Shown here: piece after piece, positions 1,630 to 51,548 of the stretch | How the letters are laid out: each line of letters begins with the position of its first letter | Position numbering within the stretch: the first letter of the stretch is position 1 | Source: Vermamoeba vermiformis | Lineage: Eukaryota | Assembly (NCBI GenBank): GCA_045837725.1 | Contig: JBEWZL010000137.1 | Location: 62,001 to 126,000, forward strand | DNA: 64,000 nt | Direction of reading: 5' to 3' | Notes under the pieces: model-generated | The model's database searches: none | Seen by the model: the letters and a program-made list of their open reading frames with translations, nothing else | Told to the model about the DNA's origin: nothing | Made by a program: the position numbers and the translations under genes

Positions 1630-2601
1630 ATGCTTTCGGTGCTTAACAAGAAGTTATTGACACTCCTTGTGTCTCCCTCCAAAGCTACAACAACGAAGCT
1701 CATTTCATCAAACTATGCTACTCGTGCACCGGACAATGATCAAAACATGGTTCTGGGTAATAAAGGGCTCATGACACCACGAACGCACTTTTAATTCTGG
1801 ATTTGTACAGATCCCAAAGAACATTTGAGCAAACAGGGCACAAAGCACGATCAAAGCAAGCCCGGTAAAAAGGCCAAAAAGGGTGCAGCGCGCTCTGAAT
1901 CAGGCCTCGAAGGTGAGTTGGATGTGCAGGATCGCCAAGAAGGCAACATGATCCACAGCTCAGGCACTGAGAACAGAACTCCTGGTGAGACCTACAATGT
2001 TGGTCATCAAAGCATCGGTCAGCAGGTCGGTGGAGTGTATAAAGATCGATTGGACTTTGTGTCAGACACCCCGCACGGCACTGCAGCGCCCAAACACGAT
2101 CGTCCGAGCGGTGGCACTGTGGAGAAGGTGAATGAAGATGCCATGGAAGGACGCACTGGCTACGGTGAACACGTCAAGCCTGGTCGCGCGGGCTATGGCG
2201 AACAAGTCAATCCCACTGGCGACACACAGCAGCGCCACACCACATCGCTCAACAATCAGAACGACGAGCTCCCTCTCGTGACCAGTTTTCACACTTTCAC
2301 CACCAGCTTCCACACGTGGATCCGCATGAGAGCCCCCAGCTCGCAACAAGTGCCGCCGAAGAGTCAAAGCCCCCCTCAATCCACTTGGAGACCTGGCAAG
2401 AGCGAGCAGAACATCAACGACGATGAAGACACATTGGTGATCAATTACCGCGGTGAGGACAAGTCACGTGACCGCGATGACAGATTGCTGGACTCGACAC
2501 CGCACAGCACGCACAAGGGGGTGTTGGGCGAGGACAAACAGGACGCCAAGCGACACGCTGACGAGGGCAAGCCATTGAAGGGGCAATATGAGCGCAATTA
2601 A
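1630..2601 (+). CDS. Hydrophilic low-complexity protein with a putative mitochondrial presequence
   Basis: ATG at 1630 (MLSVLNKKLLTLLVSPSKATTTKLISSNYATR), a GT-AG intron ~1757-1810, then the 258-aa G/E/D/K/Q-rich ORF. Confidence 0.65.
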
Positions 2602-2693
2602 TTCTGCCCAGTCATTGCTCAGGGAGCGAGTCTATCCACTTTATAAATATGTACATAGTCTTATTGCGAATAAACAATTTGTATCCACACAAT

Positions 2694-4308
2694 TCACTTG
2701 CTGGGCCAGGCAATAAGTGTGGCAAAGTAGTCCTCATAAGTCTCAGCGCGGCGAATGCACTGCCAGGTGCCATCAACTGTCAACAACAATTCTGCTGATC
2801 TCAGCTTGCCGTTGTAGTTGAATCCCATCGAGTGTCCTATTTCCATATTTGGTTATATTTGCACCTCGGCAACCAAAAAAACACGTACCATGTGCGCCGG
2901 TGTCGTGGATAACTGCAATGTCATTCACGCTCAGTGCGGGCAGTGCACGTGACACAGCAAATTTGTCGTTGTTTTCGCACAGTGAGCCAGTGACATCGTA
3001 CTCGTGATCGAGCGGCAGGTGTGACTTGCCTAATATGGTAATGTGATGATACGCGCCATACATGCCAGGGCGCATCAAGTAAGCCATGCAGGCATCGAGT
3101 CCCGCGTAGTGCTTGTAGCTGTGTTTGAGATGCATGACACGTGACACCAGACAGCCCGCAGGACCTGTCACAAATCTCCCGCACTCGAGAGCTACTGTCA
3201 CGTGCGGCAGACCACGTGCTACAATCCACTGCTCGTACTCGGCTCGAATGCCCTGCGAGATTGCGTTGAGATCGAGGTTCGTGTCAGACGGTCTGTACGG
3301 AATTCCAAATCCACCTCCGAGATTGACAATCTCAAATGCAATCTCGAGATCACGTGACAGTTCACTGACGAGCGAGAAGAGCATGCGCGCAGTGTCGACA
3401 AAGTACGTCGGTGTGAGCTCATTCGATGCGATCATGGTGTGCAAACCAAATCTGCAAAGATGATTGACTGTGAGACACGTGTCAGATGCAGCACTTTGCG
3501 TGACATACCGTTTGACACCTTTTGACTTGAGCGCACTGTAGGCCTCGCGGAGTTGAGCACGTGTCATGCCAAACTTAGCTTCGACAGGATTGCCAATAAT
3601 GGCATTGCCCACGCGTTCAGGGCCAGGATTGAAGCGGAGACAAACGAGCTCTAAAAATAGCGTTAGGTGTCATTTGCCTAATATGGGAATTGTTTACCGG
3701 GGAGTCCAGCTGTTCGTTCCAAGAATTCAATGTGGCTGCCATAAAGGTTAGTATCGGAGTTCCAAATAAGGAAATTTCGTACCCCAAGTCATCGAGATTA
3801 ATGATCGCATGTAAATCACGTGCTTTGACGAATTCTTCCGCGGGGGTATCGTTCGAAGTGAATATCACGTGGTCACCTCGTATTCCCAGCCTCTCGCATA
3901 TGAGTAATTCCGCTGCATGGCGTCAGTACCACACACGTACACCATATTTCCTAATTAGGCTATCTTACCCATCGAGCTGCAATCGGCGCCAAGCCCTTCT
4001 TCGTGCAGTGCGCGAATGATGTGCGGGTTAGGCAGTGCCTGGCATGAATCAATGACCGTCACATGGCTACTATGCGTCCGTTACATACTTTGACGGCGTA
4101 ATATTCGCGGAATTTAGGCGCCCAAGAAAATGCTTGGATCAGATCGCGTGCGGTTTGTCGGACGAGAGCTTCATTCTGATGAAAGGGCATCAAAATATGA
4201 ATCGTATTTTCGTGGTAATATTCGCCATACGTAGATGTGAAAAGGTGTGGGATAGAGTTCAACGGCTTGTCGGATCTGCTCTTCAGTGAACGGCAATGCC
4301 TTGCTCAT
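2694..4308 (-). CDS. lysA: Diaminopimelate decarboxylase
   Basis: YPTPFHIY, YYAVKA (PLP lysine), FTSNDTP, NLGGGFGIPY, ECGRF, GSLCENNDKF, GAHG/HSMGFNYNGKLR across several short introns. Confidence 0.93.
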
Positions 4309-5537: not shown

Positions 5538-6004
5538 GTGAATCATTGCCACCATTTGTTGTCGAGTGACAGTATTGCTTTTTGTCGCTATACAAAGCAT
5601 GGAGTCCCAATATAACCCGAGTCCACTTAGTGAAGTATTTGTACTGACCGACGAGTGGATGTGCCGAAAGATAAATTCAGTTGTACAATACTTCAAGTGC
5701 GACTGTATTGTCGTAAAAGCATTAAATGTACTATATAATACGCCTATATACTTCGAGTACAGATTTGCTGGTGAGTCCATCAACAACCTCCGCTTGAGTA
5801 TTTCGCCGGACTGCAGTTCAGCAGCTAGGCCGAGTAACGGACCACCGAGCCCTCATCACTCGTCAATGCATCAGTGCGCACCATTCAGTGCTGCGAGTCA
5901 CGTGCCGAGTGAAGTGCAGTGCGGTGAGTTCAGCCGTCACGTGCGCAGTGTCACTCGATAACAAAAAACACGCTGCAGTTGACATTAACATTAGCATTAA
6001 CACC

Positions 6005-7436
6005 ATGACACACCTAGGAGCACCGAGTGATCTATTGTTAGGATTCGATCACTTAGAGTTCTGGGTTGGGAACGCATTCCAAACAGCCAACTATCTGATC
6101 ACCAGATTCGGCTTCAAACACATTGCATACCGCGGACTAGAGACTGGTAGTAGAGACCTGGTGACGCATGTCGTCAATCAAGGCCAAGTATGTATTATGA
6201 CACGTTTTGAGACCCGCAAAAGGGCGGATCCAACGGAGCAAATTTAATTAATAATTCAGAAATTATCGGACTATTAATGTTGTATTTGTTGACCTTCAGA
6301 TATCTCATTATTATTGAAGATATTTATTTTTGTTCTTTTACCGTTAAATTTCAGCGCAGATCTACCTCTGCACGACTTATTTGTTTCTGACGGTAAATAC
6401 TCGCCCCAAATCACATCTTATTCACAACTACTACTACCACCTTACTAACGCCCTTCAGATTAACATTGCCTGCACCTCAGCGCTGTACCCGCAGCACGCA
6501 GCACACAGCACATTCCTCGCGCAACACGGCGATGCAGTGCGCGTGATTGCCTTCACCGTGCTCGACTGTCGCGCTGTGTTTGCACGTGCTCGCGAACATG
6601 GGGCACGTGTCATTCGTGAACCGAGCGAGTCGCGCGATGAATTCGGCACGGTGGTCACGGCAGAAATAGCCACATTTGGCGATGTCATTCACCGCTTTGT
6701 GGAGCGCAAAGACTACACAGGGCCCTTCTTGCCTGGTCACGTGGCCTCAGAGGACCACAACGATCCTTTGCAACAATTTACACCCTGTCCTGGCCTGCAC
6801 ACCTTCGATCACGTGGTGGGCAATCAACACGAGGGCGAATTGAATTCTTGGGTCACGTGGTACAATCACGTGCTGCACTTGCACACGCTGAGCGAGTACA
6901 CCGTCAACACGGGCGAGTCCTCGCTGCGCACGGTGATCGTGTCGAGTGCGAATGAAGCGATCAAAATGCCGCTGATTGAGCCGCTGCAGAATGTGAAGAA
7001 GAGTCAGAACCAGGAGTACGTCGACTTCAATGGCGGGGCTGGCGTGCAGCACATTGCATTCCACACCACGGACATTATACATGCAGTCACTCAGCTCCGC
7101 GCACGAGGGGTCAGATTTCAAGAGGTACCGCCGCAGTACTACAGCTATATTCGTCGCAAATTAGAGAACTCGCGCGTGGTGTTGAAAGAAGATCTGCAGC
7201 GCTTGGAAGAGTTGAAGATCTTGATCGACTTTGACGAGCACAGCACAGACCCCGAGCCCGGCTATTTGTTGCAGATATTCACGCACCTCATTCAGGACAG
7301 GCCGACAGTGTTCTTCGAGTTGATACAGCGCCACAAGCACGAGGGCTTTGGCGAGGGCAACATCAAAGCGCTGTTCGAGTGCGTGGAGCGCGAACAAGAG
7401 CGGCGCGGCAATCTCACTGCAGACACGCGCGAATAG
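6005..7436 (+). CDS. HPD: 4-hydroxyphenylpyruvate dioxygenase
   Basis: FDHLEFWVGNA, DHVVGN, GAGVQHIA, GYLLQIFT, RPTVFFELIQR, GFGEGNIKALF; one intron ~6188-6459. Confidence 0.97.
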
Positions 7437-9043: not shown

Positions 9044-11284
9044 ATGTCGAGTTTATTTTCTTCCTTCATGTCTGGTGGTACATCCACTAACAAAAGTGCG
9101 TCAGCCACGCCAACAAACCCAACCAGCAATGATGACGATAATTTGCCGCAAGTCGCTATTCCTGCTGCCAAAACAGGTATGTATTATATTGTATTCATTT
9201 AGGGTTCGCCATTGTTCTTTCTGAATTAACGAAAAATTCCAACGATCAAATCCAACAAAATCAATTGTAATACGCAAATAATCTAATTAATCGGCGCATA
9301 TTATTAGGACAACAAAGGAATGAAGGTTGGTTGAAAAAAGGAGGCATTTTGACGTATAAGCCTCGTTATTTTATTGAATACGACGGCAAGATCTATTACA
9401 AACGAAAGAAGGAAGACCAAAAGGCACGAGAGTACTTCCCTATTAACAAAATTATTGCTATTCAAATCACTAAAGGTAATAGCTCATAATTTTCCGATCG
9501 GGAACTTTCATAAAGACGCGTCGACTGACAATTCATGCTAATCACTGCAGAACTTGAACTGGAGTTCACTTTGACCGTAGTGGGCACTGGTGGTGACAAG
9601 CTGATTTACATGCAAGCGCTCAACCGCGAGGACTTTGATCGCTGGGTCAAGATCTTCGTCGAGCGTACTGGTCTGCCAGTGTTTGACGCCAACCAACAAG
9701 TGATGCCCAAGTACAAGAGCAAGGGTAAGGGTGTCGCTCATGCGAGTCAGTGCAACAGTCGCGACTCTGCTTTCGCCGTCAACTGAGGGGGCGTAGCTCC
9801 AACGGTAGAGCGGCGGATTCCAGGTCCGATGGTTGCGTGTTCGAATCACGTCGCCCTCATTACTTTTTTATTTTTTCTTTTGCCTTACCACTCTATTACA
9901 TCAGGTGCTCGTGCCTACACCAATGTCGGTGACGATGAAAGCAAGTCAGACTTTGCCAAGACACATCCTGGCGTGAAAGTCGTACCCGGAGCTGCACCCG
10001 AAGTTCAACGCACCGTGCAGCGCGTCGTCACCCCTAGCCGCACTGCCACTGCTGCCAAGCCTGCAAGTGAGAGCAATTCATTGGCCTCATCCACCGCTGA
10101 ACAACCACGCGACTTGCTCGTGGATCTGTCTGATCCCACCCCGACCTCACAACCTGCGCACCCAGTCAGCGCACCGAGCATGTTGCCCGTGGACGATGAG
10201 GTCGCGAAAGGTCTGCTCGAGCGCAATCAGAGTCTCTTGTCGCAGCTCGATCAACAGTTCAATCTCAACGAGGCCTTACAACAGCGCATCTCAGATCTGA
10301 TCCAACAGCTGCACCAACAAGTGCTGATCAATCAGAACGCGCAACAACAGCTCGTGGACCTGAGCACCGCTCTCAACGAGAAGAACAGCGCGGTCGAGGT
10401 ACGTGTGACTTGGTGTTCATCTATTCGCGGCACAGACTCACAGTTATTCTTAGGCACTGCAACGACAATTGAGCGAGGGTGGTGAATCCGTAAGTGATTT
10501 CTAAATATGGTAATATCAATACTAGATATTGACACGTGTCAAATAGTCAGCCAAATTGAACGAAGTGACGGAACAACTCGCACATCAGACCCAAGTGAAT
10601 GCAAATCTGCAAACACAAGTGACGCACTTGACCAATCAGCTCAACGAGCGATTGCACATGAGCCAAGAGCGACACTCGCAGGTAGATGAGCTCGAGAACA
10701 AGATCCGTCAGCTCAACGAAGACCTCGCGGCCAGTCAACTGCGTGTCACTGAGTTGACAGGTCAGCTGATGAATGAACAAGAGCGTGCAAAACAATTGGA
10801 GAGCACCGTCGAAGAACTCAAGTCGCGCGTGACGAGCGAGACCGCCAAAGAGACCGAGCTGAGTCACGCCAACGAGGAGTGGCAGCACAAGTACGAAGAG
10901 GAGGTCAAACAGCGCGCTGAACTCGAGCAACGCTTGGCACAACTGCAAACACAGCGCGATGAACTGCAAACGACTGAAGCCTCGCACAGCCAAGAGTGGC
11001 AACAAGAGCGCAGTTCACTGAACGAGACCGTGCACCAGCTCAAAGAGGAAGCGAGCAAGATGAGCGAGGAGATTGAACAGCTGCGCAGCACGAGCGAGGA
11101 CACGGAGAAACAGAATCAAATTCTCAACGAGAACGTGACAGCACTGAACAGCGTGATCATCAAGTTGACGTCGACCAATCAGCAGCTGTTGACGGAGCTC
11201 AATGCCTACAAACAGAAAGTGCCACCATCCCCGCAGAAACAAGTGCAACCTCCGCGCACTCCCTCCGCTGAGGACCGACTGTAA
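9044..11284 (+). CDS. PH-domain plus long coiled-coil protein
   Basis: EGWLKKGGILTYKPRYF...IYYKR...IYMQALNREDFDRWVKIF (PH fold), followed by Q/E-rich heptad exons from ~10200 to 11200. Confidence 0.85.
9787..9859 (+). tRNA. trnW-CCA: tRNA-Trp(CCA), nested in an intron (9725-9904) of the PH/coiled-coil gene
   Basis: Cloverleaf: acceptor GGGGGCG/CGCCCTC, D arm GCTC/GAGC, anticodon loop TT-CCA-GG, T arm GCGTG-TTCGAAT-CACGT, discriminator A, downstream T-run (Pol III terminator). Confidence 0.95.
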
Positions 11285-11362
11285 TTGCCTTATTTGGACA
11301 TTGCATCAAGTGTTAATAAATCAGATTTACAATTCGGCTGTACATTGAAATGTTGACACGTG

Positions 11363-14300
11363 TCAAACTGTGTGCTGGACAGAGGTGTCAGCGAGTGACG
11401 CGAGTGACACGCACCACTGCTGCGAGTCCATAAATAGCAACCACGCGCGCCAGTGCGGATCGTGCATCAGAGTGTCTAATTGCCTTATTAGTAAGTGCTT
11501 GCTAATAAAAGTCACTGCTGTCCTTACCGCGATGTCCGAGCACAATTAATCCGCTCCGAGCACGTGTCAGAGCGACATTCAGTCTGCGCCAGTCATTCAA
11601 GAACCCCACGCGGTGCTCGGGATTGCTCCGAACAGCGGAAAAAATGATGATTTCTTTTTCACGGCCCTGGTGAACGATCAGCAATTTGTTTCAGTGAATG
11701 AGATATTCCGCACCTGAAATCCATCGACACTGGCGACATTAAGGCCACCCTCGACGAGTGTTTGACTGTTCTCGCCCTCGTCTGCCAGGGTCACATCGCC
11801 CTCGTCTGCCAGGGTCACATCGCCCTCGCTGTCACGTGCCGCGTTGTTGTTCGACTTGCGCGGAGAAATAACTAATTTGGCACGGAACTGCGTGAAGAAT
11901 TTGTCGCGGGAGATCAAATCGGAGATATGCCGCACTTGCCCGCTGTACGGTGTAATTATTCCGATGTCACTCGTTGACAGCTGTGGCGCGCTATTTTTGG
12001 CGGTGGTGGCAGTGTCGAGCACCATCTCAAATCCCGAGTCATCGTCAAAATAGGTAATGTCCGTGCCAGTCACGTGCTCTGGTTGACGCGCGACAGGTGT
12101 CAGCAGACGGCGGAGAATTGTCATGACATATTTGGCTATGAATTGATCAGTTGAGTGTGACACGTGTCATTTGCTCACCTTCTTCGCGGTTCATGAACGA
12201 CTTTCCCAATCCGACATTGCCAGCCTCTTCCGCGCCCAGTGGCACATCGATGAACACCACCGGATGTTGTTCCGCACCACTGACTGGCCAGGGAAATCCC
12301 GCGGGCAGTGGTCGATCACCGCGCTGCACGGCATTGAAAATTTTCCCTTTATAGAAATACTGCAAAGATTGATGAGTGTCAGTGCCACCGACAGCTGCGA
12401 CATACCATAGAAGGAAAGTGCGCGATATCAGGGTGCATGCGGTACTGATACTGCAGCAGATTGGGCGAGATGAGTGGCACGTGGCTCGGTGTCAGCGGAT
12501 CATCGAGCTGCAGCGGAGATCAGTACAGTGCAGTGCTGGCACAGTGCCACTTACCTGAATCACGTGACTGGTGTGGCCTGCCAGACGTTGAAAGGGTGAG
12601 ATCGTCAGCACAGCGTCATTGCCTTTTATGGAAGTCGGAGGCAGTTGATAGTGATCGCCGAGCAGCACGAGCTGTTTGATGTCACGTGATCGGACCAGCG
12701 GAATTAATAGCGCGGGCTCGGAGCACTGACTGGCCTCGTCCATGAGCACCACGTGGAATTTGACGTCTATTTTTAGCTTCAGTTAAGTGCCTGAATAGCC
12801 ATATTTGGTCACTCTTACCACGTGACAGCAGTTCGTAGTCACCGACCCCAACCACTGTGCCAACAATGACCTCGGCACGTGACAGTATATCTCGCTGTAT
12901 CTCGCGCATAATCTGCCGCAGCTCACGACGTTTTTCCGCGAGTGACTTGTCAACTTCAGCGTTCACTGAATCTGCGGAGATACAATCACGTGAGCACGAG
13001 TCACATTCATGAACAGGACTTACTGTCGCGTTGTTTCACTGAACGGCGCTGTGAGGTCTCCAGCCGCGTGATCTCTTGCGTAATCTCCTCCAATCTCGGA
13101 TATCTCCGATCACGTGTCATTTGCACCTCCAAGGAGACAGCACGCAATTCTTCGCGTATTTTCACTGAACGACCGACCCGCACAGCGCGCACTCCGAGCT
13201 TGAGCAGTCCCTCGAGCAGATTGTCCACTGCCACATTAGTAAATGCTGTCGCGAGCAGGGGCAGCACACTGCTACTATTTTTAGCGCGCGATCGTTGCGC
13301 GAGGAGTGTCATCACCTTCATCAAGTGCACGGCGGTGTAGGTCTTGCCGGTGCCTAAATCGAGCAGTTAGTGGCGTGGTGACAGGTGTCAAACAGCGATC
13401 AGCACGGTACCAGGCGGGCCTTGAATGAGTGACAGGCGTCGATTGATCACGTGACTGATCACACTGCGCTGCGAGTCATTCAGCTGCCACTCCCTCCACT
13501 CTGGAATCACGTGATCAATGTCGCGTGGACTGTTCAGTGAAACAGTGCCCCACAGCCCTGGTTGTTCCGCTGCGAGACGAGTGATCTCGGCGGGAGATTG
13601 CAGGTCCATGAGCAGCGCTTGAAACACAGAACTGTACGGCACGGTGTCTTCGGACCACGTGTTGCGTACTGTCACGTGATTGGTCAGCTTTTGGCCTGTG
13701 AATAGCTGCAAACAAGTCAATATTGCCATATTTAGTAATTCACAGCCAAACATACTTGCAAAGCATACGACATGCGGTCAAAGGTGACAGTACTCGGCCC
13801 ACGATCGATGCGCCATCCACGTGATGTGTTGCTATTATTGGCTGCAGTGTACGGACCAGTCGATTGTTCCGCTGTCACGTGCTCTTCTTCGAGCAGGGTG
13901 CGCAGTGAAGTCACGTGCACACCACCAGAGGTATACTGCACCCAAATATGGCGTATACCTCGCTCGACAACAACACCCTCCCACTGATACTTGTTGCCCT
14001 GGTCAGTGCTATTTTTAGCCGCACTGAGTGGCACGTGACCGGTGCGCGTGACGAGCACTGCATCGCCGTGATTGAAGCGGTGATTGAGCGGGTACGGCGC
14101 ACGTGACTGATACTGAAATTTCACGAGCAGAGTGGGCACGTGATTGAGATCGGTCACGTGCTGATCGGTCAGGGTGTAGCCTTCATGAACGAGACGCGTC
14201 AGGGGCCAGGTCTGGATGCGCTCTCGGACCTGACTCAACTCAGCGGCGCACTCGTCGTTGATGGCACGCTGCCACTTGTCGTAATAGGCCTAATATGATA

Positions 14301-14664
14301 TAATGGACATTAGTGCAAGAACTGTCTGCAACTTTTCTCAGAATTTACGTAGTGGTGCTGGGCTAGATAATACGCCCTTAATATTGCGGTAATAGCGCAG
14401 TAAATAATACTAATAATAAGGCACTAATATTATGAAAGGCAGAGTGCTGTACCTTGCGGCCCTTGGATTCACTGCTGCTGATCACTACTGGCAGAGTTAA
14501 TTCATTGCCCCTGTGTTGCTACATAAATAATACCATATTAATTATGAAATTAAATGACAAAAACAGTGGTGCGATGGATTTACCTGCTGTGGAGGAGCGA
14601 GTGAGTTGATGCGCGGCACTTTGCGATCCCTATTGTTGTGATCATCGGTTGCCTTTCTCTTCAT
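11363..14664 (-). CDS. Upf1/Dna2/IGHMBP2-like superfamily 1 helicase
   Basis: [92 protein letters not shown]. Confidence 0.95.
11772..11828. repeat. Perfect 24-bp tandem repeat (2.4 copies) inside a helicase exon
   Basis: tcgccctcgtctgccagggtcaca x2 plus a partial copy; encodes [18 protein letters not shown]. Confidence 0.9.
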
Positions 14665-14811
14665 AGTGCGCACTTGTGGCTCGTCATTCGCGTTTCAAAA
14701 CAGATCTATGGTTGTCATGACACGTTAATGGCGGGAAACATTACCAATGAAATCTCCGCGCACGTGATCGATGTACAGAGCTATGTAAGGCTATTTACAG
14801 ATGTTTATTGC

Positions 14812-16302: not shown

Positions 16303-16596
16303 CTTGACTTGGATGTGAGCAGCGAACTGCGTGTGGAGTGTGGGGCGAGAAATATACAGAGAATAATATATACAAGGTGCAGGTCTAGTTACTGCGTTGT
16401 TCAGAAGTGCGGTCTAGTGTTGTTGCGTGCAATTGAAAAATCAGATCTGCCCAGCACTTGTTTTTGTCTTGCAGTGCACGTGCCGAGCACCATACAAGCT
16501 CCTACCATAATAATATATATATTATTCAACTTTAATAGGCGGGGCACTGATACACGTACACCTGTAATTACAGTCAAGGAATCAATTTCAATTCAG

Positions 16597-38714: not shown

Positions 38715-38782
38715 TGTACATAATCCTTGTAAATAGCACCAATAATGTTCAATACTCGAGTCAGTAAGATTTATTAAGCCGC

Positions 38783-40414
38783 TCATTGTTTGTAAAAGTC
38801 TTTGGTCGTGTGTTCGCAAGGACAGCCTTTCTCGTGCGCGTATTGTACACAGTCCATATGTCCTTTCATTGTGGCGTACGAGCATGTGTAGGCATCCCTA
38901 AGCAGTGATTAATGGCGTGTTGCGGTGCGGTCTCGAGACTTACCATTCACAGCCATTCTCGTGCGCGTACTTCAAGCACGCGAGATGACCGTGCATCGCA
39001 GCACCATAACACGTCGTGTCGGCCCTAGTGAGTGGTTAGTGAGCTGGCGTAGTACAAGCCCTCACAGACGTACCATTCACAGCCATGTTCGTGCGCATAT
39101 TTTAAGCACTCTAAATATCCACCCGACGCCGCTCCCCCAGTAGCAGCAGCAGCCCAGGGAGCACCGTTCTCCGCTGCGTACTTCAAGCAGTCCAAGTGCC
39201 CGCTTGATGCAGCGCCTGTGGTCGTTCTTGCGTCCCTAAATAATGTGATCAGTACATTGGACTTGGATGGTGCACCGATCAAGGTACGTACCATTCACAG
39301 CCGTTCTCATGCGCGTATTTCAAGCACTCCAAGTGCCCCTTTGCAGCTGCCTGGGCACAAGTCGATTCGTCCCACTCACAGCCATTTTCATGGGCCCATT
39401 TGAGCTGTTCTAAATTGCCGTGCTGGGCCAAGAAGCTGCACACCGAGCTGTCCCAGTCGCACCCATTCTCGTGCGCGTATTTGAGACACTCAAAGTGGTT
39501 GTTCATAGCTGCATTTGGTGCCGCTTCAAAGGACCTGACAACAGAGCTGTGGTTCAGCACGTGTTCGATGCAACAATTAAGGTACTTACCATTCACAGCC
39601 ATTCTCGTGCGCGTACTTGAGGCAGTTGAGGTGTCCAAATGTTGCAGCCAACAAGGTCGTCTGTTCATCCCACTCGCACTCGTTCTCGTGCGCGTACTGC
39701 AAACACTCGAGGTGCCCATTGGCGGCTGCTTCATTGCACGTGTCTTCATTCCTGCAGCAACAGCGGTGAGTGCCTATTGGTCAGCAGTCGCGCACAGACG
39801 TACCAATCACAGCCGTTCTCGTGCGCGTACTTCAAGCACGCGAGATGTCCATTGGCCGCTGCTTCATTGCACGCCGCTTCATCGCCCCACTCGCAGCCGT
39901 GTTCGTGCGCGTATTTCATGAGACTAAGGAAACCCTTGCTCGCAAAATAACCGTGAAATGTCGAGGGCTTGGGCTTGTTATCTTTAATTCCCTTTTCTTC
40001 TTTGCGCTTTTTGACGAGTGCATTGAGCTCTTTGGAGACTTGCGCGACAAACACCAAAGATACGGCTTCATAATTTCTGTTGCTGCCGATGACGTGATCT
40101 ATAATAGTCATCCAAGTATCTGAAGGCAATACTACTGCAGCGTCGCTCTCGGTGTCATTATCCTGTTATAGACAAAATTAATAATAAGATGACAAAGACT
40201 CATTGTGTGATCCCGATCGGCAACCGAATCAGATAAGTGGACTAGTTACTGACTAATTAAATATGATTGCAATATTGTGGGCAAAGGTAATTATGTCGCA
40301 GAACAAAATATTTCATCACATTTCGCATTGCGCGCGCGTTTTTTAACTTACAGATTTGAATTTTTTGTTAGCGCGGTTATCTTCCATTGAGTCAGACGAT
40401 GCTTTTCTCTTCAT
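38783..40414 (-). CDS. F-box-like plus ankyrin-repeat protein (CLKYAHENGCEW repeat type)
   Basis: MKRKAS..KKFK exon, LPSDTWMTIIDHV..VAQVSKEL (F-box-like), ~11 repeats of AAxxGHLECLKYAHENGCEWD. Confidence 0.9.
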
Positions 40415-40588: not shown

Positions 40589-43500
40589 CTACTGATTGGC
40601 CTCGAAGAATTGGCGCAGTGCTGGCAAACTATTCTCGACCGAGGAGTACGTCTTCAAGCAGCCGCGGATCCACTTGGACAATTTGTTCGCGCAGTCCTCG
40701 CGTGCATAGCGCTCATCGAGCAGTATAATCGCGCCGTAGTCTCGTATGTGTCGAATGCACCGACCAATGGCCTGATTGACTGCACGATAGGCCTGCAACG
40801 CGTACCAGCTAATGTGAAGTGTTACTCGCTGATGCTATATTTAGCCGCGGTGTATATATATATAGCCTACCTATTGCCATCCAGCAGTCCTAAGCTTTGC
40901 TTGCGTTGCGTGTTGAATTCTTTTTTCAGTACAATCTTCAGATCTTTCCTAAAAAGGAGTTCAAAATCAGAGTCAAATTTGCTTTGATCCGGATCGGACA
41001 GTGCTACATACACTAGCGGGAATGGAATGCCAATCACTATCACTGCGCGTGCATTGTGATCGCTGAAATCGAGCCCTTCACTCACTTTGCCGCGACACAC
41101 CGCGCAGAACAGCGCTAAAAATAGTTGAGAACTCATATCAATGTACTAATTAGGCAATACCTCCTTGCGCGCTCTCAGTGGCGGAATAATACGTTGACAT
41201 CACACCTGCAAAGTTCTCTTCTGCGGACCTCGGCTCTGTCACTACAATTAGCGCACACTAAATTATTGCAAAGACACGACGCACCAATCGCCACGGTTTT
41301 GCGACATTGCACTTGGTGCCACAGGCCAGTGTTGGTCCAGCGCTCAATCATCTTGTCCATCAGACCGTAGGACGGGAAGAAGCACAGCACACCGTGAGGG
41401 ACCACTTGACAGTACTGCAGCAATGCAGCTCCGATGGCATCTATTACCATATTAGGACATGCAAGCACTCCTCACAGTAGTACCTTGATATTCAAATGAG
41501 ACCGAATTGGTGTACACGCTGTTGAACTTGACTGTCTTGGGGGCCAGAGCACCGACCCAGATCTGACACGTGTCAATCACCGAGCGACAAGTACTGTGAC
41601 ACTTACCTGTTTGGTCGTGTTGATCACGTGATTGGTTTGCACGTTGTGAGGAAACTTCGTGGCAAGTTCACCGGCAAACGAGTCCATTGGAGACAAGGTG
41701 CCAGATGTCACAATGATGGTTCGAGCTGTCAAACGTGTCACATATTGAGCAGCACTAACACCTATTTATATGTCCCTTACCAACACCCGCGATCTGTGTG
41801 AATGCCACTGCGGGGTTGAGACACCACAGGCCAATGGAATAGCTCCACACGCGACGTCCTGTCATTGTTAATAGTTGAACGAATTGATGCAATGCTTACC
41901 ATTTTTGGGCACGAGTGTCTTTTGAATCACCACTTTGTAGTCGTGTTGAAAGCGATAGTTCTGCGTCGTCAAATAGTGCGCTATTCGGAACAGATGTGAG
42001 AGGAGAATTTCATTTTTCTGCGAAAACAATCGCTCGTCCGACTCGTTGTTCACTCCCAGACCGTGATTGAGCTTGCCGATCAGCCCTGTGATACTTTCAG
42101 CTGTCACTCCGTAGTCCGCGAGCAGTGTCACTAATTCAGCCCCGCCCCATCTGTATTGCATCAGCGACCAATAACACCACACTAGCGCACTTACACATTG
42201 GAGTTGGTTTCAAAGTCTGTCGGCTTCAAATTGCCAATAGCTTTTCGAACCCAAGAAAGCAAGCCATCGATAATCTGCTTGAACGGTTATAACGTCGAAT
42301 ATCAGTGAGGTACTTACGGTGACAAATGGTCCAAAGTGTTCGGCCAGCGGTGTCATATTGACCATGTGTAACTCGTCTGTCAGTCCTAGCTGCTGTGTCA
42401 GTACAATTCATTTGACACGTGTCACACATCACTCACCAACTAAGTCCTCTAAAGTGAAGTCCATCGTCGTTGCCTCGCGTGCTGCGTCTTCAATGTTGCT
42501 AAAAATAGATTATTACACTCGCTGCCTGTGCCACTAACACTTACTGGGCCTCATCGAAAATGACCACTGCGCCTTGCAGTTCAATCTTGAATGACTCGCG
42601 AATACCCGGGTCTAAGAGATAATTGTACGGACACAACACGAGATCAGCTTTGTACGAGAGTGTCTTGGCCCCAAAGTACGGACAAGCTGTCAACGGTGTC
42701 AGTCAAACATGTCAAAATGACACGTGTCAACTTCACTCACCTTTATTGTCCTGACCGAGCAGCACAATGTCCTCGAGATCCCACGGCTCAGTCTTCAAGT
42801 CCTCGCGCTCAGTCAGCACGGACTTTCGGTTCTTGTACGTGCAGCCTTGAGGCGTGTCCACCAACTTGCGGCTGTGTGAACGTTAGATATGGAGCGCTGT
42901 CACGTGTCAACATGTCACTTGCCAGTCTGTGTCTCGAGTGCGTGAGAGACTGATGGTCGGGTGCACGCATGTGTGATCACGTGATCCAATCACTGCCATT
43001 TTAGGACGGTAAGGAGTCTTGCGCAGTTCAGCGACCACTTTTTTGACCTGCGCGTGCGTGCGTGATGCGTAATAGATCTTCGGTGCTGGAGGCCGCGGTG
43101 TTTGCGACCCTTCATCGTCACTGTCGCCGTCACGTGACTGTTTCTTCTTTGGATCTCGCGAACCCTTTCCTGTTTTGGAAGGCTCCTTCTTGACACTTGC
43201 CTTGATCGCAGACTTGCTATCCACCTTGCGCTTCTTTGCACTGCTGTCGTCAGAGCAGTGGTCGAGACTACGCTTCTTGTTGGGCGTGACGAACACGCGC
43301 TTGCTGGACTGAAAATCATCGTCCAACTCACTCAGATCTAATGTCACTCGATTGCTGTCGCTGGAGTGGGTCATTGTATTCTTGTTACTATTGTCATCTT
43401 CAATAGTGATCACTGAGGGATGTGGATCTGGTTTGATTTCGATTTTGATTTCGACTTGCTTAGCTTCCTGCTTGACCTCCTGAGCCAATGATTGCTTGTT

Positions 43501-43883
43501 TTCATGTTCTGATTTCACAGGAGTGCTTGTGCTATTACTGCAAGTATGCGAAGCACCGTCCTCCTGTTTAACGGCGTGGTTGGGATCGGCATTATTGTTG
43601 AAATCGTTCTGCCATTGTAATGCAGCGCACAACAGAGCCAATGTTTTTCCTGTGCCTGTAGGTGCCTCAAGCAGCGCATTTTCTGATCTAATACGAAGGG
43701 ATTGAATCAGACGCCGAAGAATTATTTGAATATTGGATTCGATCCAAAATTAATTAATTAGTACCTCTTCAGGGCCGTTAATAATTTGGACATTAGAGCC
43801 AGCTGAGGTCCGTAACATTTATACGGAAACATGACACGATGCCCACAAACCCAAGTGACATGATTCGTCTCTGGATCACTCAT
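40589..43883 (-). CDS. FANCJ/BRIP1-like (XPD/Rad3 family) Fe-S DNA helicase
   Basis: [113 protein letters not shown]. Confidence 0.95.
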
Positions 43884-44145
43884 TTCTCAAGATGCGAATC
43901 TACGGTGCTGTGGTGTGGTGTTGCAATAGTCTGAGTTCACTTAAAAATCATGGTCAAATCCTCTTAAGAAATTCTACGAAATGAAGCTTGCGCTGCTCGT
44001 GCTCGTTTTGTGCGGCGGAAATGTGACCGTTACAAAATTCAAAACTAATCAATTGATTGACCGAGATTGCAGAGCACAGAACGCGAGCAATATCATCCGT
44101 GTTTGTGAACACGTGCAGGATTGTAGCTCTAGGTATTTCTGTGCA

Positions 44146-45445
44146 ATGAAGCGCGAAGGTGACAGACTGTACGCCTCATCGCCTGAAAAGAAGTTCAAAC
44201 TTCATTCTGGCAGTCCTAAACACACTACGTACGAGAAATTTAGTATATTGGAATATATTAAACTAACAAATGATGATTAGAGCGTGTTCGCCTTTACAGT
44301 TTAAGTGTCCAACCTTTTCGGTCGATGGCGATCCAACAACCTTTATGGCACCCGAGCATTGGCTGCTGATATTGTCGTACCTCTTGCCTGTTGAGATATG
44401 CCAATCAGTGGTGGGCATTAACAAATTCATGGCTGGTCTGGCACAGAGTGATTATCTCGTAAGTAGCTAGATTTACTTCCATTCCGTGCTCCCCGTAGTT
44501 GATATTGAATTACAGTGGCGACCATTGACCTATCGGATGTACACAGACTGGTGCACCAATAGACGAGGTGAACTGCTACGACCACGCCTGTGCACCTCGT
44601 GGAAACAAATCTACCGCGACATCACTGCCCTCGCCACTGCACCGCGCGATATGACCGGCAAGTGTTTTGACCACGTGATTAATGTACGCTAACAGTTTAT
44701 TAGCATTTTGCCCGTTCTGTGGAGATACGTTGCCTAAGTACGGAGCTGACAAGTGCGGATTTGTTGCTGCACCTCAACGTATGTAGTGCATGATACGCAC
44801 AGGGTCATAATGACGAGCACCTATTGATATTGTAATATAATAATAGGCTGTGCGTTCTGTCAAATCAAGCTAACTATCCCAGGACAGCAATGCACTACGT
44901 GTCAGCAGCTCAGTTGTGACACGTGTCAAATCACGTGCCGCTGTTGCACGACACCAAGGTACAGTCCACAATCACGTGTCAGTCAGTCACGTGCTAACAG
45001 TCCTCGCTAGCTGTCCTCAGTGTGCTGTGAAGACGCGCGAATGTCAGCACCATGACACCTGTCACGTCATCTCCACGCTGCATTGCAATGCGTGCACCCG
45101 AGCATGTGACAGGTGTGCAATGATCACGTGCCTCACTGCGCAGAAGTGGTGCAAAGGTTGTTTTGACTTTTTTGGGTGTGAACCTTGTCTGGGCGTTCAT
45201 GAACAGGACTGCATTCAGTAAGTCTTTGCAACTATTTCACAGCACGTGTCACTCATTTAGCACTCAGCGGCGTGTCATCTGATGACTCGAATGCTGCCTT
45301 TGACAGGTGTCACATCTGTCGCACGCACACCTCACTCGACAGCACCACGTGTCACAAGTGTCACTACACGACCTGCGCGGTGTGTCTGATCACGTGCTCG
45401 CAGTGCGGCACGAGTTGTTCGGAGTGCTGCCAGTGCCTCGCGTGA
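44146..45445 (+). CDS. F-box protein with Cys-rich (CxxC repeat) C-terminus
   Basis: MAPEHWLLILSYLLPVEICQSVVGINK..AQSDYL/WRPL (F-box), SWKQIY, then many CxxC pairs. Confidence 0.75.
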
Positions 45446-45656
45446 TGATTGTAATTTAGTGTGTTATATAGAGACCTTATTTGCAGTTGTAACTAATTCA
45501 CTGAACCAGTCTTTGCAGTTGTACATCGCTTAGTCATAAATAACAATATTTACTAATTTGGTACCAAGCCCCCATGACAATTCTTTGGAATCTTTCAACC
45601 AGGGCACGTTTAAATCAATCAGGGCTGCACGCACAATTATCTGCAACAATTTGAGC

Positions 45657-47405
45657 ATGGAACACCACGACGGAGGTCATCAACCAGGGCAAGTAGATCC
45701 GCATCTGCCCTCGTTCGTGCAAGTAGTCCCTCCTCAGCCCGTACAGTTCTCGCAGCCCATGCCTGTCCCCGCGGTTGATCAGGGTTACAATCGCGGTCAG
45801 GTCTCGACTTACAATTTTTCCAATGTAGTAGGTGAGTAGTATAATTAATCGCAAGCTCAAATTTCAAATCAAAAATAATTGTTGAAATATTTTTTTTGAG
45901 GATCAGCAGAAATGTTATTCCATCGTTAGAACAAAATCGAGTTATTACTATGTAAAGAGTATTAATCACCTGAATTTTAGAAAGAAGAAATGCGCCAGTT
46001 CCACCACCTGTAGCATTATTTACTGGATCAAGCAGTTCAGCGCAGTACACGTTAAATTCAGTGCTCGCAGAGGATTCTGGTCCTAAGGTAAATATACAAA
46101 CTATCATATCCTAAATTCATTACTTCTGCTGACGTAAGGACCAGATCCATTTTTGAGATCCTGCCCTCTTTGCTTACTAACAGTACCTTATTGCAGCACA
46201 GTCTATGGCAGCGCTATCTCCGCGTAGTCAGTGTGGACAATCAGGCACGCAAGTTATCAATCTTCATTGGCTTTATGGCCGTTGTATTCATATTCAAACT
46301 GCACGTATCACACGGTGCCGAATCCATGGGTAACTCACTGCACACACCACACACTATAAGCACATTACACTAACACCGTGTAGCACTACTGGCCAGTGCC
46401 TATTACACGCTATTCACGCTGCTCACACTGGCCACTAGTCTCGTCGCACTCGTCGCCAACAAACAGCGCTCCACACTCGCATTCTCGTACGGGTACGTCA
46501 CGTGACAGGTGTCAAATGTGTCACGACACTGACAGCTCTGCACAGCTATGACAGGTACGAGTTGCTGATGGGCTTTGCTAGCGGCACACTGCTCGTATTC
46601 GTGTCGCTGTACGTCTTGTTTGAGGGCTTTGAACACATCCTCGAGCCCCACGAAGTCAACACGTATGTACACTTGTATATAGTGGCCCTATTGACACTCA
46701 TCTCGGCTATTAATAGTAACAAGCTCATGCTCACTTCCTTATTTGGTATGGTGGCACACGTGCTGGCAGTGGTGCTGTTCAACGATCAAATCAAGCTGCG
46801 CACAGAACTCGCAACACATTCGCGCATGAAGAGCGTTGAAGGACTAGTGCGCCAATTAGTGACCGATGTGATGCCAGATCTGCTCTTGTTTGTCACTTCG
46901 CTCATATTCTACGTGCAGTAAGTTCTGTCGCACATAGATACCATTATCTAACTCAAATCAGACCAATCTACTGGCTGGAGAGTCTGATTGGCTGGGTGAT
47001 TGCACTGCACGCCATGTGGACTGTCGTTCCGTACTGCATCGAGTCGGGACGCATTCTAATTCAATCAGTGCCGCAGTCTATTCAATACATCCTCGAAGAC
47101 ACAATTCGTGACGTAAGTATCAGTCACCACAATGACTACAGTAATAACCTCGTGTGCAGGCCACAACAGTCGACGGCGTGTTGGAGGTGCGTCGCAAGAA
47201 GTCACACTTTTGGACCTTTGCGCCTGGCGTGTTCGTCGGCACACTGCACGTGCGTGTCAAACAAGACGCAGATGTGCAACTAGTGCTGCAACACTTGAGC
47301 AAGCTGTTCAGTCCGATCATTCAACACCTGACCATTCAAGTGCAAAAAGATGATTGGGGCCATGGGCACAATCACGATCAGCCCGCACACACCGTGGCAC
47401 ATTAG
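45657..47405 (+). CDS. Cation diffusion facilitator, ZnT6/SLC30A6-like
   Basis: FSYGYDRYELL, HFWTFAPGVFVGTLHVRVKQDAD, LTIQVQKDDW; TM2 lacks HxxxD, as in ZnT6. Confidence 0.88.
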
Positions 47406-47492
47406 AACACTAGTGCTCGTATAGTATCATGGCACTCCTTTTGTGATATAAAACAACCTATTTACAACGCATATGGTGCTACTAAATACAAG

Positions 47493-49370
47493 TTAGAACC
47501 AGTGATATTTCTTGAACAAAATGATCACGATGGCACTGTACGCCGCCATGCCTCCCAAAATGACGTAAAACCACGTTAAGTCCGTCGCATCAGGTTTGCC
47601 CGGTACCTACAGATACATGTTAGCCATGCATTATTCTACTCAACTAGGTGTGACGCGTACATCGACGTTCATTCCCCACAGACCAGTGATGAACGTGAGT
47701 GGCAGCATGATCGTTGTCATGGCACCAAATTTCTTCATGACACTGTCCATACGATTCGAGGAATAGGCGACTTCAATGTCCACTCTGTTGTGCGACTTGT
47801 TAGGAGATGCATATGAATCATTTCAGTTTATCCCTACCTCGCCAAGTAAGTCGAGTTGAGATTAGACAGGGTTTCTTTAGTGGCTTCAATGTCTTCCAAC
47901 ATACTGCGCACTGATTAGCATTCAAATAAACTATTATTCCGCTCACTTACGCCTGAATGTGATCCAACACGTCACGCAGATAGATCTTAGTGTTGCGATT
48001 CAATGCTCCAAACACTGCATCATGTTAGACACGTCCTAATTAACAGTGATGACTTTTTAGCGTACCTCTGTGTTTGTGCAGCGGATCTAACTTCTCCAAT
48101 GTGGGACTATCTTCGTGCTGTATGCCTTGCTGTTGTTGTTGTGACTCGTTGTGTTTGCCTTCAGTCTCGTCTTCAGTCAAACTGCTCTTGATCATCAGTG
48201 ACACCATCACATCTTTTTTCTTCAACAGTTGTGCACGCAAGAATGAAATTCTTTTACGAGCCAGACCGATGCGTCTATAATAATAGACATTGTTAATCAC
48301 TGATAGTTGTTCTATTATTTTTCACACGTACTTCAACACATCGTTCTGTTCATGAGCAGTCAAAATGAGCACTAAATCATCGAGCGAATCGACCTCCATT
48401 GCAATCTATCGGACATTAGCAAGGACTATATACTCCCATTAGTATACACCTATCGCTTACATGTTGTACAAAACTGAAGAACATATCGACAATTGCGTCC
48501 AATATGGCGTACATGATCCAATCAGCTGTTCGCTTCATTCCTTCCTAAAATATTATATTGGACATTAATATATTTGCCAGCACTGGCACTCAACCAAGTA
48601 CACACCTTGAGCATGCGCATACGATTGAGCACTTGATCGATGCACTTGATGGGTCCCTGGTGCACGCAGATCAAGAAGTTCTTGAACACAATCAAGTTGA
48701 CATTGACCTGTTGCAGTTCATTGGTCCCTGGTGGCACGTGCACCTCCGTCATCACCACGAATCGATAGTTGTCGAAGATTTCGTTCTTTTCACGTGTCTC
48801 CGCTGAGCTGAAGCAATCCTCCACTGTCAATGGATGCAAATCAAATACACGGCCAATCTCTCGCAGAGCAGCAGCAGTCGGGAACTGTACATCCACAAAA
48901 AATGTCTGCTTAGGATTGTCTTTGATATTTTTGCTGAGTGCTAACAACTGTTGGAGCTCGATTTGTTGTACTTTGCGACCATTCGATTCGATTAATATGA
49001 TTTTCTGTTGGCAAGGAATACGAGAGTTAAATACGTATGAACAGCACCAACACGATCCAGATCGGAAAAGTAAATTTCCGATTATTACGATTTAAATGAA
49101 TTTAGATAAAATTTTTGATTTTACCTCGTTGCGCTTTTCTTCGAGTTCATCATATTTAGCAAAATCGACGACGAGAGGATACTCTTTGACTTTTTTACTT
49201 TTTTTCTCTGGGGGAGGAGATGTGATGCCGTTGTTGTTGCTCTTTTGTCCATCTTCTCCAATATTATCAAGCCCTTATTATTTTATTTAATTAAATCTTT
49301 TTACAGCACACATTTTGATTTTCATACCGTCATCCAAGTTATCGATCGTGGCTTGTTCCATCTCATTCAT
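47493..49370 (-). CDS. CorA-family Mg2+ transporter (Alr1/Mnr2-like), paralogue 1
   Basis: FDLHPLTVEDC, REKNEIFDNY, DWIMYAILDAIVD, IYLRDVLDH, LPLTFITGLWGMNVDVPG. Confidence 0.93.
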
Positions 49371-49655
49371 CTTGGCTAGCTCATTAATGCACAAATAAAT
49401 TGAATGCAATCGGTGCTGTGGTTAGTCGAATTTTGCAAATAGTACAGAATAGAATTCCGTTAGGTGTAAAAATCGTTGGTTTTCGTTCCCGAACTGCCGC
49501 CAAAAATCATAAAAATATTTAAATTAATTCTTGCACCACAGCTCGCGTCGTGCGTATTTTTAAGCACGACGTCCATTTGTTATTAACTTCGAGTTGCATT
49601 GAGTGCAGTGCGTACTTTAATTATTCGATTAATAATCGAAAATAATTCAAATAGC

Positions 49656-51548
49656 ATGGGTAGTACTACGAAAAGGTTAGTACGGACAATAAAATAACAA
49701 AATATTAATGTACATTCTCAGATTATTTATTGCTTTGTCGATCGTGATCTCGGTGCTAGGCAGTCTATTCTTAATGAACGAGTGGTTGCCAGAGAACCAG
49801 TTCCGAGCGCTACGCAATGTAATAGACTACAACAAGAATTCAATTCGCCTCGCGGCTTTAGAATTTCGAGATCGCGTTGCAGCACTGCGGCTCACTTACG
49901 AAAATTGGTCTGCAGAGGTCAATTCGCACAGTGATTTATTAGCGGGGCTCATAACACGACTGAGACAATTGAAGAGCAGGCCATGGCTATTCAAATATCA
50001 ATCAGATGTGGAGGAGAGTTACTTTTTAACACTGCTTCAACGCCAAACACATCCGCACTCAGAAGTGTACAAGCGCGCTATCAATGGCACCACCCTAGTG
50101 CACGCTGTTATCGAGGCCAGTTCAGCTGCGAGTCACCATCCTTATGCACAGCTATTCAAATTTGTACTGGAACGCACCGAGACTGCTTGTCAAATGTAGG
50201 TCCATATCACGCATCAATGAAGTTTCCTAATTTGGTTATAGGCCCGACAACAGACAGTACAGCATCATGCACAAACTCATTGCACAAAACAACTTACCAC
50301 TGACGGAGATTGCTTTGACACTTGACGGCTGCAAAGTCTTATGTGAGTGTAGCGTTCAGAACCTTTTGCAGATCTAATACCAAATATAGTAAGTGCCAAA
50401 GATAGCAGCAACAAAACACCGCTCGACTATCTCACGCAATCGTCGATGGCCAAGCTGCTCGTACAACATCATGCGCGTGTTGATCAACAGCTGATCGAGT
50501 CGTGGTTGACACGCGTCCTCGCCAATGACACGTGGTCAGTGACACTTGAAGCGGGCAAGATTGTAGAGGTGCTGCTGGGCCCTGTCAACTCAGATCTAGC
50601 GATTGAATCTGTTAGTCAAGCGTTCAATCAATTGCTTGGCTACAACAAGGCTGTTGTTCCTCGCCTGGATACGACGTAAGCAGTGCCAGCCAAATCTTTC
50701 ACGAATCTAACCTTTTGACAGCAAACACACACTGCTGGGTCAATTAGGTTCGGCAGTCGCTGGTTCGTCGCTCGTGTCATTTCAGTACGTGAAACTCGAT
50801 CGTGAGAACACTTTGTTACCGAAAAAGGAAATACCACTGAACATGCGACCACGTGAACGGCAAGTGATCGTAATGACTGTGAGTGGCTCCTCGTCTTTGC
50901 AATCCAAACAGAAATTTAGATCTGGTCTCGTTGTCGCAGTGCAATCTGTAAGTTATGCCCTGCTGTCAAATAACAATCAATAATCTATATTTAGAACGCC
51001 GATTCATTTGACTTGAAATTCAGCGAAAGTGTCAACTTGGTACACATGCTTGCAAATGATCAGCAAGTAATTCGACAGCAAGACACGATACTCGGTGCTT
51101 ATCCACACGTGACACTCACCGCTGAGTCCAGTGCTTTTGATCACGTGACTGTCACTGCCCTCGTGACGTGTAACAACGCATTTGTTGCGTGTAAAGGTGA
51201 CTTCAGTGTAGAATTTGTGCCATTTGCAGAGGTAAGGTACCTGTCTAATGTTACCTATTATTGACATATAGTTAGCACCTCTCTAACGTCACCGAGCTCA
51301 CATGGACTGACTTCGCTTGGCATCCGTTCTCATTGTTCCGCTTGAGCGCAATAACTTGGTTGCCTTTTATGGAAATAGTGCCTAAGACGTCATCCGGTGT
51401 CGTTCAACTCGCGCGAGTATTGCCGATATTTGTGTCACTGTTTGGCTTTGTTACAGTGGGCTACATGTGGGCTGTGTACTGGATCTGCTACTTGTTCGGC
51501 GGTGTTTTATTGCTTACACCGCTAGTGTTGCTAAGGAGACTAATATAA
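49656..51548 (+). CDS. Multi-exon membrane protein of unknown function (N-terminal TM, ankyrin-like segments, C-terminal TMs)
   Basis: RLFIALSIVISVLGSLFL; GTTLVHAVI and KTPLDY ankyrin-like bits; hydrophobic last exon; GT-AG introns. Confidence 0.6.

Follow-up and report, generated by a model that had tools for sequence, protein, structure and literature searches.

Excess of the palindrome CACGTG in the bodies of a subset of genes in a 64-kb window of the amoeba Vermamoeba vermiformis

Hyper-abundant short palindromes that override codon choice and even protein sequence are known from bacteria (HIP1, uptake sequences), and their cause is still debated. The DNA uptake sequences (DUS/USS) of Neisseria and Pasteurellaceae are non-palindromic 9- to 12-mers tied to natural competence. 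The hexamer CACGTG is the E-box/G-box, whose factors include yeast Cbf1 and Pho4, USF, MITF/TFE and plant GBF. Here an excess of CACGTG is described from a window of 64,000 nucleotides (64 kb) of Vermamoeba vermiformis contig JBEWZL010000137.1 (positions 62,001 to 126,000, forward strand); all coordinates are those of the window. The evidence base was this window together with one orthologous contig of 2.6 kb, and the gene models were partial. Excerpts of one report (PMC4390886) describe cyanobacterial HIP1 as a GC-rich palindrome that is very frequent inside genes, for which a methylation/repair model was proposed. The signal in the window resembles HIP1 (GCGATCGC) and the alternate cyanobacterial palindromes in its many-fold excess, its location inside genes in all frames, its shaping of codons and peptides, and its core with weaker outer positions. 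It differs in being found in a eukaryote, one whose genes have spliceosomal introns, in being restricted to transcribed parts of some genes and missing from AT-rich intergenic DNA, and in having variants that show no bias to the outer positions. Like DUS/USS, it consists of an oligomer in excess that coding DNA tolerates and that skews the encoded peptides, but those sequences are non-palindromic and belong to bacterial competence, and nothing comparable would be expected in an amoeba. A literature search revealed no account of eukaryotic gene bodies saturated with CACGTG and no eukaryotic precedent.

CACGTG occurred 159 times in the window, compared with 26.49±5.28 times (maximum 42) in 100 dinucleotide-preserving shuffles, none of which reached 159. 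As in highly iterated palindromes of the HIP1 type, abundance was far above the compositional expectation (26.5±5.3). It was the commonest hexamer, followed by TCACGT (83 copies). Markov models of orders 0 to 4 gave expectations of 14.1, 26.0, 32.7, 65.8 and 118.0; the climb to 118 at order 4 arises because the pentamers of CACGTG are themselves enriched. The ACGT core was present 314 times, of which 159 were flanked C..G, while each of the other 15 XACGTY flank pairs accounted for 6–18. Tandem Repeats Finder reported just two small arrays in the window. A first-pass annotation of this DNA had listed nine CACGTG positions in lysA (2946, 3138, 3199, 3213, 3351, 3476, 3558, 3817 and 3866), and every one was an exact match. 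Over gene spans the density was 6.4–10.6 sites per kb, with a lower value (3.3/kb) in the SH2 gene. The annotation had also named loss of the enrichment under stricter null models as grounds for abandoning the pattern; the enrichment persisted under dinucleotide, synonymous-codon and codon-order nulls.

The signal was restricted to transcribed regions, both exons and short introns, and to some of the genes only. The site-bearing stretches, and the genes that contrast with them, were as follows (ORF, open reading frame).

2313..3871: array of 11 sites, two in an unnamed ORF and nine in a bacterial-type lysA gene, minus strand (eight coding, one intronic at 3476); 7.4/kb in lysA; Pfam Orn_DAP_Arg_deC
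5899..6872: array of eight sites in an HPPD-like dioxygenase gene, plus strand; 7.9/kb; named by Pfam
11357..16482: 34 sites in minus-strand AAA_11/AAA_12 helicase and protein kinase genes; 6.6/kb over 11.5-16.5 kb; named by Pfam
20314..21848: 15 sites in a Peptidase_S74 (ICA) gene, minus strand; 9.1/kb; the site at 21843 lies in a transcript-confirmed intron
25060..29608: 40 sites in MON2, plus strand, the densest of the arrays; 9.1/kb
31068..34334: 10 sites in an SH2-domain gene, minus strand; 3.3/kb; the site at 33496 is intronic
37379..39742: nine sites in unnamed ORFs
41567..47252: 20 sites in a DEAD_2 helicase gene (minus strand) and its neighbours; four in 75 bp at 44920-44993; 10.6/kb over 44.6-45.45 kb
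48735..51628: seven sites around a CorA-like gene and its neighbours
54945..57338: AlaRS exon, plus strand, no site; two His-Val, both CAC GTC; 93% of fourfold sites pyrimidine-ending
22941..24400: PROPPIN gene, minus strand, no site; ordinary codon usage; flanked by the saturated ICA and MON2 genes
35790..36865: mRNA cap N7-methyltransferase gene, plus strand, no site; low transcript depth
Coiled-coil gene, plus strand: one CACGTG only, in a predicted intron (12-mer at 10530..10541)

The other Pfam-named genes of the window were a cation-efflux gene and the CorA-like gene. Saturated and empty genes alternated at the kilobase scale, the empty ones being PROPPIN, the cap methyltransferase and AlaRS, with the coiled-coil gene holding its one intronic site. 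The AlaRS exon had been described as free of CACGTG, and there was indeed no site between 51623 and 60171. In 500-bp windows below 40% GC one site was found where 1.1 were expected from local composition; in those of 50–55% GC there were 77, against 4.2 expected. The 5'-most 400 bp of the lysA, ICA and SH2 genes, whose 5' ends were fixed by homology or transcripts, held no site, compared with about 7.9 expected (p = 4e-4). Confinement to gene bodies, as proposed from the first reading, was thus borne out by AT-rich windows at baseline and by the lack of sites in the first 400 bp of three genes. Neither gene length nor exclusion from 5' ends explains the empty genes, as lysA and HPPD are short yet rich.

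An anticorrelation of site density with expression had also been proposed. It held for AlaRS, whose codon bias was extreme relative to every other gene of the window, and it did not extend further: across 27 ORF blocks, density against fourfold-pyrimidine bias gave a Spearman coefficient of 0.11 (p = 0.58). Codon bias, GC content at third codon positions (GC3) and third-position base were rejected as predictors of site density, there being no correlation. Contig depth, a poor measure of expression, was compared in the 20-kb transcript-mapped region. The deepest contig was that of the empty PROPPIN gene (83.8), the empty cap methyltransferase was among the shallowest (bins of 3.7–11.2), and the saturated ICA, MON2 and SH2 genes were intermediate (20–49, 31 and 37). 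Raw RNA reads with the same species label came from a strain 95–99% identical and were very sparse, giving no usable expression ranking.

Codon choice was compared between a rich set, made up of the confident coding sequence of motif-bearing genes (13,194 bp), and a poor set (AlaRS, PROPPIN, cap methyltransferase and coiled-coil genes; 5,088 bp). The synonymous shuffle (n=300) preserved each protein and each gene's codon pool; as a null it is conservative, because the codon pools of the rich genes already include the motif's own codons. The rich set contained 84 sites, compared with 31.9±3.5 under this shuffle (maximum 43 of 300) and 10.2±3.0 under a codon-order shuffle. The use of different frames that had been noted by eye was confirmed over the 13,194 bp, with 46, 30 and 8 sites in frames 0, 1 and 2 against 27.7, 3.0 and 1.2 under the synonymous shuffle. 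In the poor set there were no sites versus 1.2 (synonymous shuffle) and 1.4 (codon-order shuffle); since the shuffles expect just 1.2–1.4, the poor-set genes are at baseline rather than avoiding CACGTG.

The suspected imprint on proteins was also recovered. In the rich set His-Val occurred 48 times against 14.4 expected from composition (3.3-fold), and all but two of these (46/48) were spelled CAC GTG. The tripeptide [STPA]-R-[VADEG] occurred 47 times against 22.5 expected, 30 of the 47 being spelled nCA CGT G; outside the motif CGT made up just 39 of 235 Arg codons. In the poor set all three His-Val were spelled CAC GTC and none of six [STPA]R[VADEG] tripeptides carried the motif. None of the nine synonymous opportunities there was used, for which the joint probability at rich-gene conversion rates was ~1e-7. 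CACGTG was produced mostly through synonymous codon choice (nCA-CGT-Gnn, CAC-GTG) and partly by tolerated replacements toward His-Val. The signal was strong enough to nearly saturate synonymous opportunities and to shift amino-acid content.

The lysA gene (2697-4305, minus strand) is of bacterial type. By tblastn a relative 87% identical over the queried exon was found, together with 118 further homologues among the matches listed (58–69% identical), the named ones being bacterial metagenome-assembled genomes and one archaeal metagenome-assembled genome. Sites were compared one by one with 119 homologues other than the 87%-identical relative, and the answer to whether orthologues have the same peptides was divided. 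The two His-Val sites were lineage-specific: at the first the other homologues had P in 93 and L in 76 of 119, and at the second N (26), E (21), A (20) or D (19), then I (99). One of the two was Gln-Val even in the 87%-identical relative, whose peptides were compatible with seven of the eight sites. At the six frame-1 sites the central Arg was often ancestral, being present in 119, 67, 19, 56, 101 and 60 of the 119 homologues, so that the motif there was made mainly by the choice of xCA and CGT codons with a following G. The lysA coding sites aligned gap-free with the homologues, which indicates substitutions rather than insertions. As judged from this orthologue comparison, the proteins are imprinted, yet much of the signal is synonymous.

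Several spliceosomal introns were present in lysA, including an in-frame 57-nt intron at 3452-3508. The gene looks like an old horizontal transfer that was later 'eukaryotised' and loaded with the motif.

A metagenome scan gave one locus, a contig of 2,603 nt orthologous to window positions 28000-30597 at 82% nucleotide identity, with 15 CACGTG of its own. Sites common to the window and this relative mean that motif saturation predates their split and exists in both lineages. Over the MON2 overlap (28000-29727), 13 of the 18 window sites were common to both sequences, versus 44% of all hexamer windows (p = 0.015). Where the amino acid was conserved, 12 of 16 motif sites were kept versus 53% of other hexamers (p = 0.066). 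A protein search with MON2, restricted by a length window, gave two relatives. A MON2 protein fragment 80% identical kept two of three aligned His-Val dipeptides.

In frames 0 and 1 the signal extended beyond the hexamer to a symmetric 10-mer, RTCACGTGAY. Over all 159 sites there was a purine at −2 in 133, T at −1 in 77, A at +1 in 62 and a pyrimidine at +2 in 135. The same four preferences were present both in frame 0 (n=46) and in frame 1 (n=30), although the codon positions concerned differ between the two frames. Of eight flank tests against codon-position composition, seven gave p values of 1e-5 to 1e-10, the other being +1 in frame 1 (p = 0.12); the flank T was present in 26 of 46 cases at a third position with 19% T overall. 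The bias toward TCACGTGA and GTCACGTGAC noticed in the first-pass annotation is therefore real, and decamers of the GTCACGTGAC type were the commonest extended forms. That annotation had also placed the signal at the level of DNA rather than among the by-products of coding, and this is upheld by its survival of all three nulls, its presence in all frames and in introns, and the symmetric flanks that frames 0 and 1 have in common.

The flank logo was flat past about ±3 bases, so CACGTG is not a dispersed repeat. Spacing inside gene spans was near random (coefficient of variation 1.12). The minimum distance between sites was 12 bp, where about 4.9 gaps of 6–11 bp were expected (p = 0.007). The symmetry of CACGTG/RTCACGTGAY makes a solid case, from the sequence, for a signal read on a nucleic-acid duplex.

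Introns were obtained from spliced transcript contigs of a near-identical strain (28 in all, 15 of them described here). These 15 transcript-confirmed introns were of the short GT..AG type, 11 of 46–81 nt and four of 146–314 nt. Sites in introns, which had been claimed beforehand, were verified by transcripts at 21843 and 33496, and at 3476 by a 19-codon gap relative to orthologues. About 13 more intronic sites are provisional, lying in introns that were predicted or read by eye; the intron predictors were poor, the loose version finding 8 of 15 known introns at the price of numerous false ones and the strict version 4 of 12 exact boundaries. Among intronic sites a perfect 12-mer, TGACACGTGTCA, was prominent. 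It was present in 10 copies, versus 1.9 expected from independent half-site frequencies: eight intronic (one transcript-confirmed, seven predicted or read by eye), one between convergent stop codons and one that may be coding or non-coding.

33493..33504: TGACACGTGTCA inside intron 33488-33541, confirmed by a spliced transcript contig
10530..10541: TGACACGTGTCA in a predicted GTAAGT...AATAG intron of the coiled-coil gene
12158..12169: TGACACGTGTCA in predicted intron 12136-12178, minus strand
41564..41575: TGACACGTGTCA at the 3' end of predicted intron 41563-41606, minus strand
42413..42424: TGACACGTGTCA directly after a GTGAGT 5' splice site, minus strand, read by eye
42718..42729: TGACACGTGTCA directly after a GTGAGT 5' splice site, minus strand, predicted intron
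60497..60508: TGACACGTGTCA in a predicted short intron
62988..62999: TGACACGTGTCA in a predicted GTAAGT...TTTGCAG intron, plus strand
11354..11365: TGACACGTGTCA in non-coding DNA between the stop codons of two convergent genes
44917..44928: TGACACGTGTCA as the first of the four sites in 44920-44993

With most of these introns predicted or read by eye, TGACACGTGTCA marked eight of 16 intronic sites and none of 84 coding sites (p = 7e-8). A...T flanks were present at 11 of 16 intronic versus two of 84 confident coding sites (p = 2e-9), exons favouring T...A. The 12-mer sat at either intron end, and the carrier introns otherwise shared nothing. Among the matches listed by a literature search, TGACACGTGTCA occurred in only two papers, both on unrelated virology. 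The four CACGTG within 75 bp at 44917-44993 were in sequence scoring as non-coding and may be a promoter or 5' untranslated region cluster rather than a gene-body array.

The sites are tentatively read as arrays for a putative homodimeric E-box/G-box binder. This reading is suggested by the mirror-symmetric decamer, the Cbf1-like T/A flanks, the absence of spacings under 12 bp, the selective distribution among genes, and the lengthening of the perfect palindrome where no coding constraint applies. The reader would be an abundant homodimeric protein of bHLH-ZIP or bZIP type with a Cbf1-like preference for T at the 5' and A at the 3' flank, and the sites would form dense, non-overlapping binding arrays in gene bodies. 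Selection would hold site number high in particular genes because bound arrays would influence chromatin or transcription elongation there. The TGACACGTGTCA copies of introns would represent another type of site, of higher affinity or read by another protein. The interleaving of saturated and empty genes is easier to reconcile with selection acting on certain genes than with mutational drive of uniform strength. In membership of the E-box/G-box class the sites have the CACGTG core with a symmetric flank preference, T at 5' and A at 3', which excerpts of a study of yeast report as favoured by Cbf1 at the ends of the E-box; according to the same excerpts, yeast E-boxes within ORFs are mostly unbound (PMC5880240).

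Several points weigh against such a binder. The location is not that of a promoter or nucleosome-free region, the sites being in gene bodies with 5' ends depleted. Sites of the known E-box factors are sparse and promoter-proximal, unlike the 7–10/kb found here in coding DNA, and to our knowledge such a density far exceeds any known regulatory need. No periodic or nucleosome-scale spacing was found, with no peak up to 600 bp (15-bp bins). Rich and empty genes were not separated by GC3, codon bias or strand, or by transcript depth in the 20-kb transcript-mapped region. The rich and poor sets were picked after densities had been seen. Lastly, judged from the aligned relative, conservation of single sites appears just weakly above that of other hexamers, which does not demonstrate selection on individual sites.

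A broader version, possible though doubtful, is that of a genome-wide 'gene-body code' kept up by this amoebozoan lineage, in which tens of thousands of E-box palindromes in the coding DNA and introns of a defined class of genes would be read, as non-overlapping arrays, by a dimeric chromatin protein, with a 12-bp version specific to introns. If true, eukaryotes would have an equivalent of HIP1 and uptake sequences, but one that is gene-selective and tied to transcription units, paid for in synonymous freedom and even in protein sequence. Should a binding protein or a methyltransferase be responsible, a new layer of gene-body organisation in amoebae would be added. The window offers built-in controls (restriction to transcription units, sharp contrast between neighbouring genes, exon versus intron forms) that help to part protein-binding selection from repair or conversion drive. 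Whatever the cause, the motif skews codon-usage statistics and peptide composition (His-Val, Ser-Arg-Asp), and it may affect gene prediction and substitution models in the lineage.

The best-surviving alternative, judged unlikely, is a HIP1-like drive. In it a methyltransferase would mark CACGTG, and methylation-dependent mismatch repair or biased gene conversion would make near-cognates into the motif without benefit. The phenomenon is of the same kind as cyanobacterial HIP1. Conversion of opportunities is nearly saturated and takes place in exons as well as introns, AACGTG and GACGTG, which differ from the motif at the first position, are depleted (observed/expected ratio, O/E, 0.32 and 0.58), and the weak conservation at conserved amino acids suits drive as well as selection. 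A drive should nevertheless act everywhere, yet AT-rich DNA is at baseline and neighbours with ordinary codons are empty (0/9 opportunities, p ~1e-7). As to the spread over the genome at large, coding and non-coding, of HIP1-type palindromes, the 64 kb showed sites in exons and introns, windows below 40% GC at baseline and several empty genes. CpG O/E was about 1 in rich and poor genes alike (0.82–1.17), by which a methylation-decay contrast between them is rejected. Between the window and the orthologous contig there were five window-only and two contig-only sites, and a CpG transition accounted for just two of these seven, giving no sign of mutagenic 5-methylcytosine. CATGTG/CACATG was only mildly low (O/E 0.67). 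One-letter variants of CACGTG, counted on both strands of the 64-kb window, numbered 67, 154 and 140 for positions 1, 2 and 3, and so were not concentrated at the outer positions as they are in HIP1.

An element acting in RNA is quite improbable. CACGUG in pre-mRNA would be bound by an RNA-binding protein, or copies would pair within or between transcripts. The confinement of sites to transcribed DNA, exons and introns included, is in keeping with this, as are the self-complementarity of the palindrome as RNA and the 12-bp intermolecular duplex that the intronic 12-mer could form. The flanks, however, are mirror-symmetric on different codon positions, as for a dimer on a duplex and not for a single-strand reader. 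Outside the TGA...TCA class, flanks of the two half-sites agreed no more often than by chance (4 vs ~6), so that exonic sites are not tuned for extended self-pairing, and the 5' parts of transcripts are without sites.

Derivation from a dispersed repeat or mobile element, as remnants or as footprints (a miniature inverted-repeat transposable element, an introner, or an excision footprint ending CAC...GTG), is very improbable. A short palindrome scattered at high copy number, at times in introns, recalls such elements, but there is no conservation past about ±3 bases, the introns with the 12-mer are otherwise unrelated, and the gap-free alignment of the lysA coding sites with homologues led to rejection of the excision-footprint idea. 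A by-product of codon usage, dipeptide or base composition has next to no probability: His and Val are most often encoded by CAC and GTG, and 27.7 of the 46 frame-0 sites are expected on that basis, but the total of 84 lies far outside the 300 synonymous shuffles (31.9±3.5, maximum 43), frame 1 exceeds expectation 10-fold and frame 2 7-fold, sites occur in introns too, the flanks defy codon-position composition (T at a third position with 19% T), and His-Val itself is 3.3-fold over expectation.

Two general sequence preferences were also considered. A taste for alternating YRYRYR (Z-DNA-like) hexamers was rejected, other such words being at most about 2-fold over expectation. A general palindrome preference was minor, with 365 palindromic 8-mers lacking the CACGTG core versus 265–305 expected. 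Two further palindromic 8-mers were in excess, CAGATCTG (12 vs 1.5–2.4 expected; for example at 10292, 23628 and 54925) and TTCATGAA (10 vs 0.9–2.2 expected; for example at 12190, 23158 and 36731), and both were found also in CACGTG-free genes. The dinucleotide profile values of the window were 0.72 for CC/GG, 0.69 for TA, 1.29 for CA/TG, 1.21 for GC and 1.02 for CG. CCGG was strongly depleted (52 vs 109–206 expected).

The 5' splice sites of the 15 introns (20805-39073) were mostly GTAAGT or GTACGT, with one GC..AG intron at 34037-34087. A CTAAT/CTAAC box was present near the 3' YAG, often in the form CTAATTAG, which accounts for an excess of TAATTA and CTATTA words. The minus-strand introns 38898-38943 and 39025-39073 were preceded by an identical ten exon bases, 127 nt apart, in a region where plus-strand ORFs had been assumed. 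The pair at 38898-39073 may reflect tandem repetition of an exon unit, or else an antisense gene that overlaps.

The best named matches of AlaRS were from amoebozoans at 45–49% identity (Balamuthia, a Physarum transcript and dictyostelids), with fungi similar and one transcript at 94%. In the AlaRS exon region (54909-57365) the antisense strand carried an open frame of 818 codons. A tRNA gene (9787-9859, plus strand; Rfam RF00005, 53.4 bits) was located at the start of an ORF that had been taken for the first exon of the coiled-coil gene.

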